In this document: positions 8,593 to 9,447 of the stretch, in pieces | Position numbering within the stretch: position 1 is the first letter of the stretch | Layout: the number at the start of each line of letters is the position of its first letter | Source: Escherichia coli | GTDB taxonomy: Bacteria > Pseudomonadota > Gammaproteobacteria > Enterobacterales > Enterobacteriaceae | Reading direction: 5' to 3' (one strand) | Assembly: GCF_030384885.1 (NCBI RefSeq) | Contig: NZ_CP128613.1 | DNA length: 64,000 nucleotides | The notes under the pieces: generated by a model | The model's database searches: none | What the model saw: only the letters and a program-made list of their open reading frames with translations | What the model was told of the DNA's origin: nothing | Translations under genes and position numbers: made by a program

Positions 8593-9447
8593 ATGTACAT
8601 CATTTCAAGCAAAAACATGCTGAAAAAAGCCCAGTCAGAGGGATATGCCGTCCCTGCTTTCAACATTCATAACCTTGAAACTTTACAGGTAGTTGTTGAG
8701 AGCGCTGCACAACTTCGCTCTCCCGTTATGCTGGCGGGAACACCGGGTACTTATCGTTATGGCGGCGTGGGAAGTTTGATTTCGTTAGTACAATCGCTGG
8801 CTCGCGAGTACAACCTACCGTTAGTCCTGCATCTCGATCATCATGAAGAGTGTGATGACATTTTTGACAAGGTCCGCGCAGGGATCCGTTCTGTCATGAT
8901 TGATGGTTCCCATTTGCCATTTGAAGACAACATTGCGCGAGTGCAAGAAGTTACCGCCTTTTGCCATTGCTTTGATGTTAGCGTTGAGGCCGAGCTAGGG
9001 CGTCTTGGCGGTCAGGAGGACGATCTGCTGGTGGATGAAAAAGATTCAGCTTATACCTCACCAGCCGCAGCTGCAGAGTTTGTTCAACGTACCCAAATTG
9101 ACTCTCTGGCGGTAGCAATAGGCACTGCACATGGTTTATATGCGCATGAACCACGTCTGGATTTTGTGCGGCTGGAACAAATTCGCCAGCTGGTAGAAAT
9201 TCCGCTGGTGTTGCATGGAGCTTCAGGTCTATCGGAACAGGACGTTCAGCTCTGTATTCGCCACGGTATTTGTAAAGTAAATGTCGCGACAGAATTGAAA
9301 ATTGCGTTTGCCGATGCATTAAAAGGATATTTCTACAACAATCCAGCGGCAAATGATCCTCGTCATTATATGCAGCCGGCAAAGGCCGCTATGAAGGAAG
9401 TTGTAACCCGCATTATTGGCGTCTGTGGCAGTGAAGGAAAAATTTAA
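8593..9447 (+). CDS. class II ketose-bisphosphate aldolase (GatY/KbaY-like tagatose-1,6-bisphosphate aldolase family)
   Basis: 284 aa; class II aldolase motifs [27 protein letters not shown] and LVLHGASG; N-terminus [29 protein letters not shown] closely resembles GatY/KbaY by recall. Confidence 0.85.

Follow-up and report, generated by a model that had tools for sequence, protein, structure and literature searches.

Can a tagatose-1,6-bisphosphate aldolase of the GatY/KbaY kind work without the GatZ or KbaZ protein (hereafter Z) that is regarded as its partner? The question is raised by tagY, a gene for a class II aldolase in the 64-kb stretch of Escherichia coli chromosomal DNA that we analyzed (called the window below, always at its full length). 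The initial annotation had described here a GatY/KbaY-like aldolase with no partner gene in its module, and had suggested, as three sensible options, that it works alone, borrows a chromosomal partner or relies on another protein of the island in that role. We identify the gene, with near certainty, as tagY of the known E. coli D-tagatose island; related clusters vary in their last slot, which holds a GatZ homolog, a DUF4432 gene or nothing; and on balance we lean toward TagY being a self-sufficient aldolase with no need of a dedicated Z subunit.

Identity of the aldolase

TagY scores 521.1 bits against the NCBIfam GatY subfamily model NF009374 (cut-off 383) and 472.2 bits against TIGR01858 (cut-off 443.55), passing both. 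It stays below the cut-off of the KbaY equivalog NF009375 (376.2 bits, cut-off 542) and of two class II fructose-bisphosphate aldolase (FBA) equivalogs (NF009497, 315 against 423 bits; TIGR01859, 311 against 343 bits). In BLASTP it shares 64.0% identity with K-12 GatY and 56.7% with KbaY, which are 54.8% identical to each other; of the solved structures, AgaY/KbaY matches it best (1GVF, E=8e-104). Its homologs carry the precomputed Pfam assignment PF01116, and a reading-frame check found the strand opposite tagY closed by many stops. The close likeness to the E. coli tagatose-1,6-bisphosphate aldolases that had been claimed for this protein is therefore well founded.

The class II motif set that we checked comprises the zinc histidines H83, H180 and H208, the catalytic Asp82 and Glu142, and Asn24 and Asn230 (KbaY numbering). 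All seven residues are invariant in TagY and 27 aligned relatives, in agreement with the initial annotation, which had credited the enzyme with the full set. The same annotation had asked for the subfamily to be checked, and a neighbor-joining (NJ) tree together with the cut-offs of the hidden Markov models (HMMs) places TagY in the enterobacterial GatY-like radiation, not in another subfamily with partner-independent activity. A YdjI-like or FBA-like partner-free subfamily was considered for TagY and ruled out by the HMM cut-offs and by its 37% identity to YdjI.

We take TagY as the aldolase of the D-tagatose island because gene order, annotation, operators and 97% identity match the cluster published for E. 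coli Nissle 1917. Between yhdT and accC the eight genes of the island are arranged as published, and the spacer that separates tagR from tagY contains the TagR operators (Table 1). The published sequences of tagO1 and tagO2 were located with one and zero mismatches, respectively, where none would be expected by chance, and both TagY and TagE are 97% identical to the Nissle proteins. Positions 6300-15100, which cover the island and its immediate flanks, are 100% identical to E. coli 2013C-4282. The G+C content of the island is 0.42-0.46, against about 0.53 in the flanks. Of the 5426 complete E. coli genomes, 1419 carry the island. Between the TagY of the window and that of Nissle there are eight substitutions, including S87C (beside the D82-H83 metal motif), R126C and, close to E142 in the region of the mobile loop, R146L.

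The gene, the cluster, the pathway and its regulation are already published, and the absence of GatZ is visible in the same papers. The island between yhdT and accC was reported in Nissle, where deletion of the six plus-strand genes, or of tagD singly, left the strain without growth on tagatose; a plasmid with the same six genes gave tagatose growth to K-12, BL21(DE3) and W (Ha et al., 2022; PMC9720028). The same study found that PfkA is required to convert tagatose-6-phosphate (tagatose-6-P) to tagatose-1,6-bisphosphate, and that tagatose induces the first three genes of the operon more than 1000-fold, tagY being the first and the most strongly induced (PMC9720028). Its authors compared the aldolase with GatY and KbaY, described it as a third aldolase gene and stated that GatZ/KbaZ are needed for full GatY/KbaY activity (PMC9720028). 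A paper of 2025 introduced the names tagK-tagR and tagYABCDE, mapped two transcription starts and showed TagR to be a repressor that responds to tagatose (PMC12226905). In the resulting pathway, TagABC takes up D-tagatose as an ATP-binding cassette (ABC) transporter, TagD phosphorylates it to tagatose-6-P and the chromosomal PfkA yields tagatose-1,6-bisphosphate, three steps that are backed by published genetics. TagY, judging from its sequence and its place in the operon, would then split the bisphosphate into dihydroxyacetone phosphate and glyceraldehyde-3-phosphate by a zinc-dependent class II mechanism.

Absence of GatZ and KbaZ and the role of these proteins

A tblastn search with K-12 GatZ and KbaZ in six frames of the whole window gave nothing beyond chance, the best match covering 79 residues at E=0.16. 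The two-gene GatYZ/KbaYZ arrangement is not found here, as neither the TagY operon nor the rest of the window holds a Z-family gene; what had been noted for the module extends to the full 64 kb.

The premise that GatY and KbaY need a co-encoded Z subunit, also taken over from the initial annotation, stands only in part. The E. coli enzymes are indeed much less active without Z (PMC10101011). Against a general need, the GatY of Bacillus licheniformis is partner-independent and requires no GatZ (cited in PMC10101011), and GatZ and KbaZ themselves are now seen as 4-epimerases: Palur et al. (2025) concluded from genetics that they turn fructose-6-phosphate into tagatose-6-P in E. coli, so that the label "chaperone" is incomplete (PMC11907403). 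An epimerase role of their own weakens the idea that TagY is missing a subunit. Among PDB entries we found no GatY-GatZ complex, the GatZ family being represented by 2FIQ and 3TXV only, and the KbaY structure 1GVF was crystallized without a partner.

The slot after the tagatose kinase in related clusters

One genome per species was scanned for close relatives of TagY, and each locus was annotated with 10-kb flanks. Across the Enterobacterales loci with this cluster the gene order is the same and the last slot varies. The tagatose kinase is followed by a DUF4432 gene in E. coli, Enterobacter ENT03 and Superficieibacter; by nothing in Trabulsiella (three loci) and Enterobacter BIGb0383, where accC comes directly next; and by a homolog of GatZ, with 67% identity to the E. 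coli protein, in Serratia sp. H1w and Budvicia diplopodorum. The flanks prmA-panF-yhdT and accC are common to Serratia H1w and all Enterobacteriaceae loci for which the left flank was captured (the ENT03 locus shows the accC side only, and the Budvicia cluster is at a different locus), which implies that the content of the slot changed in place. The corresponding slot of alpha- and beta-proteobacterial tag clusters holds a tagatose-6-P epimerase (PMC9720028), and the tagatose-6-P epimerase of S. meliloti has been described as structurally GatZ-like (PMC11907403). With a GatZ-type gene in Serratia and Budvicia and an epimerase in the alpha- and beta-proteobacterial clusters, parsimony makes GatZ the older occupant and its absence derived. 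A GatZ-family gene thus looks ancestral in the slot, and its loss in situ in the Enterobacteriaceae looks like the derived state. The GatZ-ending clusters of Serratia H1w and Budvicia, the versions with an empty slot and the shared kinase-DeoR-aldolase core are not discussed in the papers that we consulted.

GatY-like aldolases without a nearby GatZ are common among the relatives of TagY. In tagatose clusters of the phosphotransferase system (PTS) type, the divergent kinase-DeoR pair recurs ahead of aldolases that share about 70% identity with TagY. GatZ lies downstream in those of Buttiauxella and Pseudocitrobacter, and is not found within 10 kb in those of Erwinia endophytica, Zophobihabitans, Enterobacter Ag1 and Citrobacter. 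The Citrobacter aldolase, which is Z-less in this sense, is 93% identical to the Z-linked aldolase of Buttiauxella. The gat clusters of Gilliamella likewise have no GatZ nearby.

Sequence evolution of TagY

In the NJ tree the Enterobacteriaceae TagY sequences form a clade with a bootstrap value of 100 inside the GatY-like radiation. The deeper nodes have values of 6-50, and the sister relation to the Serratia and Budvicia aldolases is therefore taken from synteny, not from the tree. Within the Z-less TagY clade the ratio of nonsynonymous to synonymous substitution rates (dN/dS) is 0.02-0.07, indicating strong purifying selection. At sites that are invariant in seven Z-linked relatives the clade shows four to five conservative changes of its own (G168, S240A, K273R, V274I, C280S), two of these residue states being shared with KbaY, and no clear signature of a lost partner interface was seen at these sites. 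We also compared, for each protein, the distance between E. coli and Serratia/Budvicia with the distance between Serratia and Budvicia; on few sequences, this ratio is 1.38 for TagY, 1.36 for TagK and 0.93-1.08 for TagR, TagA, TagB, TagC and TagD.

A possible function for TagE

The protein that occupies the variable slot in E. coli, TagE, matches PF14486 over its full length (E=5e-104, model positions 2-303 of 304) and the PDB entry 3TY1, a "hypothetical aldose 1-epimerase" (E=9e-32). TagE showed no similarity in sequence to GatZ or KbaZ, and we found no relevant literature on the function of DUF4432. Eight relatives of TagE (42-56% identity) were examined by genomic context. For six of them no class II aldolase lies in the vicinity; their neighbors are mannitol-type dehydrogenases, PfkB kinases, lyxose/fucose-type isomerases, an RbsB-type ABC transporter accompanied by a dehydrogenase and a lactonase, and glycoside hydrolases. 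The other two belong to GatZ-free clusters in which a class II aldolase adjoins them and a fucose isomerase and an FGGY kinase are present. These two were found in Clostridia-type contigs (L041, 2967-7085; L046, 6496-11643), and their clusters look like a sugar pathway that has yet to be characterized.

Such contexts fit an enzyme that acts on free sugar after uptake, as a mutarotase-like accessory, rather than a partner of an aldolase, and the empty slot in Trabulsiella fits a step that is helpful but dispensable. Only in its furanose or open form does tagatose offer a free O6, the position that TagD phosphorylates, and in solution it is mostly pyranose. TagE would be a mutarotase or pyranose-furanose converter of the free sugar and would feed TagD, presumably in a way analogous to RbsD of the ribose operon. 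Such a converter is the most likely function for TagE as far as family and gene neighborhood can tell, and a role as aldolase partner would be unlikely.

Does TagY need a partner?

Several lines of evidence lead us to prefer a TagY that is independent of Z: the maintenance of operons without Z or without any slot gene (some operons of five genes contain neither GatZ nor DUF4432), the common occurrence of relatives that lack Z, the precedent of B. licheniformis GatY, the enzymatic role of GatZ and a hint from BL21(DE3). In that strain GatY or KbaY alone on a plasmid gave no growth on tagatose, with deletion of agaR helping, whereas the tagYABCDE plasmid succeeded. A number of points weigh against this preference. 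The BL21(DE3) comparison is confounded by different uptake routes. The Z-less status of Trabulsiella, Superficieibacter and Gilliamella refers to the 10-kb flanks. The study of Ha et al. contains no separate tagY deletion, TagY assay or Z-dependence test (PMC9720028). The distance ratio of 1.38 for TagY gives a modest indication that is compatible with an adjustment after the loss of Z or with something unrelated. TagY may also borrow the chromosomal KbaZ, or GatZ, for full activity or stability, an alternative that we consider doubtful but worth serious attention. On the 2013C-4282 chromosome intact kbaZ and kbaY lie in a full aga cluster about 117 kb from tagY; Nissle also carries both intact, K-12 has gatZ under a disrupted gatR as well as kbaZ, and BL21(DE3) has kbaZ (PMC10101011). 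Among complete E. coli genomes kbaZ is present in 5314 of 5426 (98%) and gatZ in 5003 of 5426 (92%). K-12 and BL21(DE3), two of the three heterologous hosts of Ha et al., thus offer Z genes, as do Nissle and 2013C-4282, and the published growth data cannot separate an aldolase that works alone from one that borrows its partner. TagY is 64% identical to GatY and lies inside the GatY-like radiation; its nearest relatives outside the Enterobacteriaceae, the Serratia and Budvicia orthologs, keep GatZ in the operon, and so few residues separate it from Z-linked relatives that a partner interface, if there is one, could be intact. Work by Brinkkotter in 2002 is said to have found weak activity of E. 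coli GatY and KbaY without Z. The purified E. coli enzymes without Z have an activity on tagatose-1,6-bisphosphate far below that of B. licheniformis GatY (PMC10101011). What speaks against a borrowed partner is that the aga and gat operons are repressed in the absence of their own substrates, a deletion of agaR having been needed to mobilize KbaY in BL21(DE3) on tagatose, so that the partner would be scarce just when tagY is induced more than 1000-fold. In addition, five-gene clusters without a slot gene persist in other genera, GatZ and KbaZ have a catalytic role of their own, and a GatY-GatZ complex is not among the PDB entries.

Two further explanations were weighed and are improbable to different degrees. 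TagE might be a non-homologous replacement for the ancestral GatZ-family protein, either stabilizing or activating TagY or processing tagatose-6-P, as the initial annotation had also envisaged for the DUF4432 protein; we regard this as improbable. It is true that TagE sits in the slot that GatZ fills in Serratia H1w, at the same yhdT/accC locus, and in Budvicia, that a tagatose-6-P epimerase fills the corresponding alpha- and beta-proteobacterial slot, and that two of the eight DUF4432 relatives adjoin a class II aldolase in GatZ-free clusters. However, TagE lacks detectable similarity to GatZ and KbaZ and belongs to an aldose-1-epimerase family (3TY1) that is not TIM-barrel aldolase-like, a class II aldolase is missing from the vicinity of six of the eight relatives, and Trabulsiella and BIGb0383 keep tagY under purifying selection without tagE. 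We know of no precedent for C4 epimerization by an aldose-1-epimerase fold. It is more improbable still that TagY is redundant, a dispensable passenger in a pathway whose tagatose-1,6-bisphosphate is cleaved by GatYZ or KbaYZ. E. coli does have two other aldolases for this substrate, and tagY was not deleted singly in published work, but it opens the operon and responds to tagatose with a more than 1000-fold induction, its dN/dS is 0.02-0.07 with all catalytic residues kept across genera, every recovered Enterobacterales version of the ABC-type cluster includes the aldolase, and the endogenous aldolases are limiting for tagatose use in BL21(DE3). A TagY that needs no dedicated Z subunit remains our preferred reading.

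Organization of the island and of its relatives

The features of the island and its flanks are collected in Table 1.

Table 1. Positions of the tag island genes, flanking genes and control elements in the window
Feature	Positions	Strand	Description
yhdT	6120-6362	-	Left flank of the island
tagK	6455-7390	-	Second PfkB-family sugar kinase, in the divergent "reg" operon; RefSeq coding sequence in the identical strain record; named in PMC12226905
tagR	7422-8252	-	DeoR-family tagatose-responsive repressor; DeoR/AgaR-type matches, repressor role from Nissle (PMC12226905)
tagR-tagY intergenic control region	8253-8592		Elements as defined in PMC12226905
Preg	8298-8271	-	-35 TTCAAA, -10 TATAGT
Predicted CRP site	8479-8494		Within the tagR-tagY spacer
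Operator tagO1	8524-8542	+	Published sequence located in the window
Operator tagO2	8548-8566	-	Published sequence located in the window
tagY	8593-9447	+	Class II zinc-type aldolase, predicted to act on D-tagatose-1,6-bisphosphate; ATG start, 284 aa, stop codon included
tagA	9482-10372	+	RbsB-type periplasmic sugar-binding protein
tagB	10433-11932	+	Sugar ABC transporter ATPase, two ABC domains
tagC	11933-12922	+	ABC transporter permease
tagD	12944-13906	+	D-tagatose kinase, tagatose to tagatose-6-P
tagE	13903-14949	+	DUF4432/aldose-1-epimerase-family protein, last gene of the module
accC	15041-16390	-	Right flank of the island

A promoter and terminator scan of the island gave counts no higher than in shuffled sequence and served only to place the published Preg hexamers. 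Against the NCBIfam tagatose kinase model NF049991 (cut-off 420), TagD reaches 414 bits and TagK 348 bits. The longest open reading frame (ORF) of tagK, which begins at 7465 and codes for 336 aa, would share 44 nt with the 3' end of tagR; the RefSeq start at 7390 gives 311 aa. One candidate role for TagK is that of the cluster's own tagatose-6-P kinase; tagK was not on the plasmid that showed PfkA dependence. Beyond the island, two long ORFs run antisense to the flanking genes, one over accC (15281-16225, plus strand, 314 aa) and one over accB (16311-16787, plus strand, 158 aa). Both are absent from the identical RefSeq annotation and are most likely frame artefacts of a high-G+C coding strand.

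The divergent trio of a tagK-like PfkB kinase (55-59% identical), a DeoR regulator (38-42%) and the aldolase (about 70%) is conserved in ABC- and PTS-type clusters. It spans 6455-9447 in the window and about 7800-10900 in each of the loci L013-L021, and its PTS-type carriers include Buttiauxella, Lelliottia, Erwinia, Zophobihabitans and Citrobacter; only the genes for uptake and the first kinase differ. This pattern suggests that the trio may form a modular core.

The yhdT/accC location of the tag cluster is shared by E. coli, Trabulsiella, Enterobacter, Superficieibacter and a Serratia, the last belonging to the Yersiniaceae (window 3786-16871; Serratia sp. H1w, L012 4868-17714; also L006 and L008-L011). 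A locus shared across two families points to old residence with repeated loss, or to exchange via the flanks, more than to a recent one-off acquisition, despite the low G+C content. The smallest form of the island that we saw is that of Enterobacter sp. BIGb0383 (L009, 8629-15315), which is without tagK and tagE, yhdT being followed by tagR and tagD by accC. E. coli E69, the species representative, carries a tagY allele (L005, 8406-9257) with 94% protein identity to that of the window and a dS of about 0.57; the proteins encoded by prmA, panF and accC in the flanks are 99-100% identical. A divergent tagY between near-identical flanks suggests that the alleles of the island are much older than the chromosome around them, or have been exchanged independently of it.

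Significance

Through the island, roughly one in four complete E. coli genomes, most of which the literature places in phylogroup B2, can use the food sweetener D-tagatose for growth, so that the enzymes involved are relevant to gut ecology and to the use of tagatose as an inducer in probiotic strains. The partner question is of interest chiefly for enzymology and pathway engineering: the Z requirement of GatY and KbaY from E. coli is the reason why they are avoided in engineering, and a Z-free TagY, if confirmed, could serve as a convenient enzyme for tagatose-bisphosphate cleavage. The natural series of slots with GatZ, with DUF4432 or empty offers a simple route to the role of GatZ as chaperone, epimerase or both. 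Should TagE prove to be a replacement for GatZ, it would give DUF4432 its first function and provide a case of a class II aldolase swapping its helper protein. The island itself belongs to what is already known, and the biochemical point raised here is real but narrow; the comparative clusters are useful for the design of experiments.

Comparison with known systems

The closest known counterpart is the TagY of Nissle (ECOLIN_RS18695/HW372_RS02445), which is the same gene, 97% identical, in the same eight-gene order, at the same yhdT/accC locus and with the same operators. It differs from the TagY of the window, from strain 2013C-4282, at eight residues, including the extra cysteines of the latter at 87 and 126. 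E. coli GatY of the galactitol pathway has the same family, length and catalytic and metal residues, at 64% identity. In contrast to TagY, GatY is co-transcribed with GatZ, and TagY belongs to an operon with an ABC transporter and a kinase, not to a PTS operon. KbaY/AgaY of the N-acetylgalactosamine pathway (1GVF) shares 57% identity and the same active-site residues and is the best structure match; TagY nevertheless misses the KbaY cut-off, and KbaY branches outside the TagY/GatY group, with weak support.

Among clusters of the same build, those of Serratia sp. H1w (L012) and Budvicia diplopodorum (L017) have the same order of tagK-tagR and of aldolase, substrate-binding protein, ATPase, permease and kinase, with aldolases 73% and 71% identical to TagY, respectively; their last gene codes for a GatZ homolog, in the place of the DUF4432 gene of E. 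coli. The PTS cluster of the Klebsiella/Salmonella type (gatY-tagKTH-gatZ) has aldolases about 70% identical, with the same kinase-DeoR pair upstream in Buttiauxella, Citrobacter and Erwinia, among others. It uses a fructose-type PTS and a 1-phosphofructokinase-like kinase, unlike the ABC transporter and TagD of the island, and GatZ is present in some of its versions and absent from others.

Two further aldolases are worth comparing. E. coli YdjI is a class II enzyme of the same Pfam family without a Z partner gene in its operon, and its structure was solved alone (6OFU); it is 37% identical to TagY and has another substrate. The GatY of B. licheniformis, which is of Gram-positive origin, serves a tagatose pathway as a class II tagatose-bisphosphate aldolase and reportedly needs no GatZ for full activity (PMC10101011). 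It is likened to TagY by description, not by sequence; it provides the precedent for a TagY that works alone.

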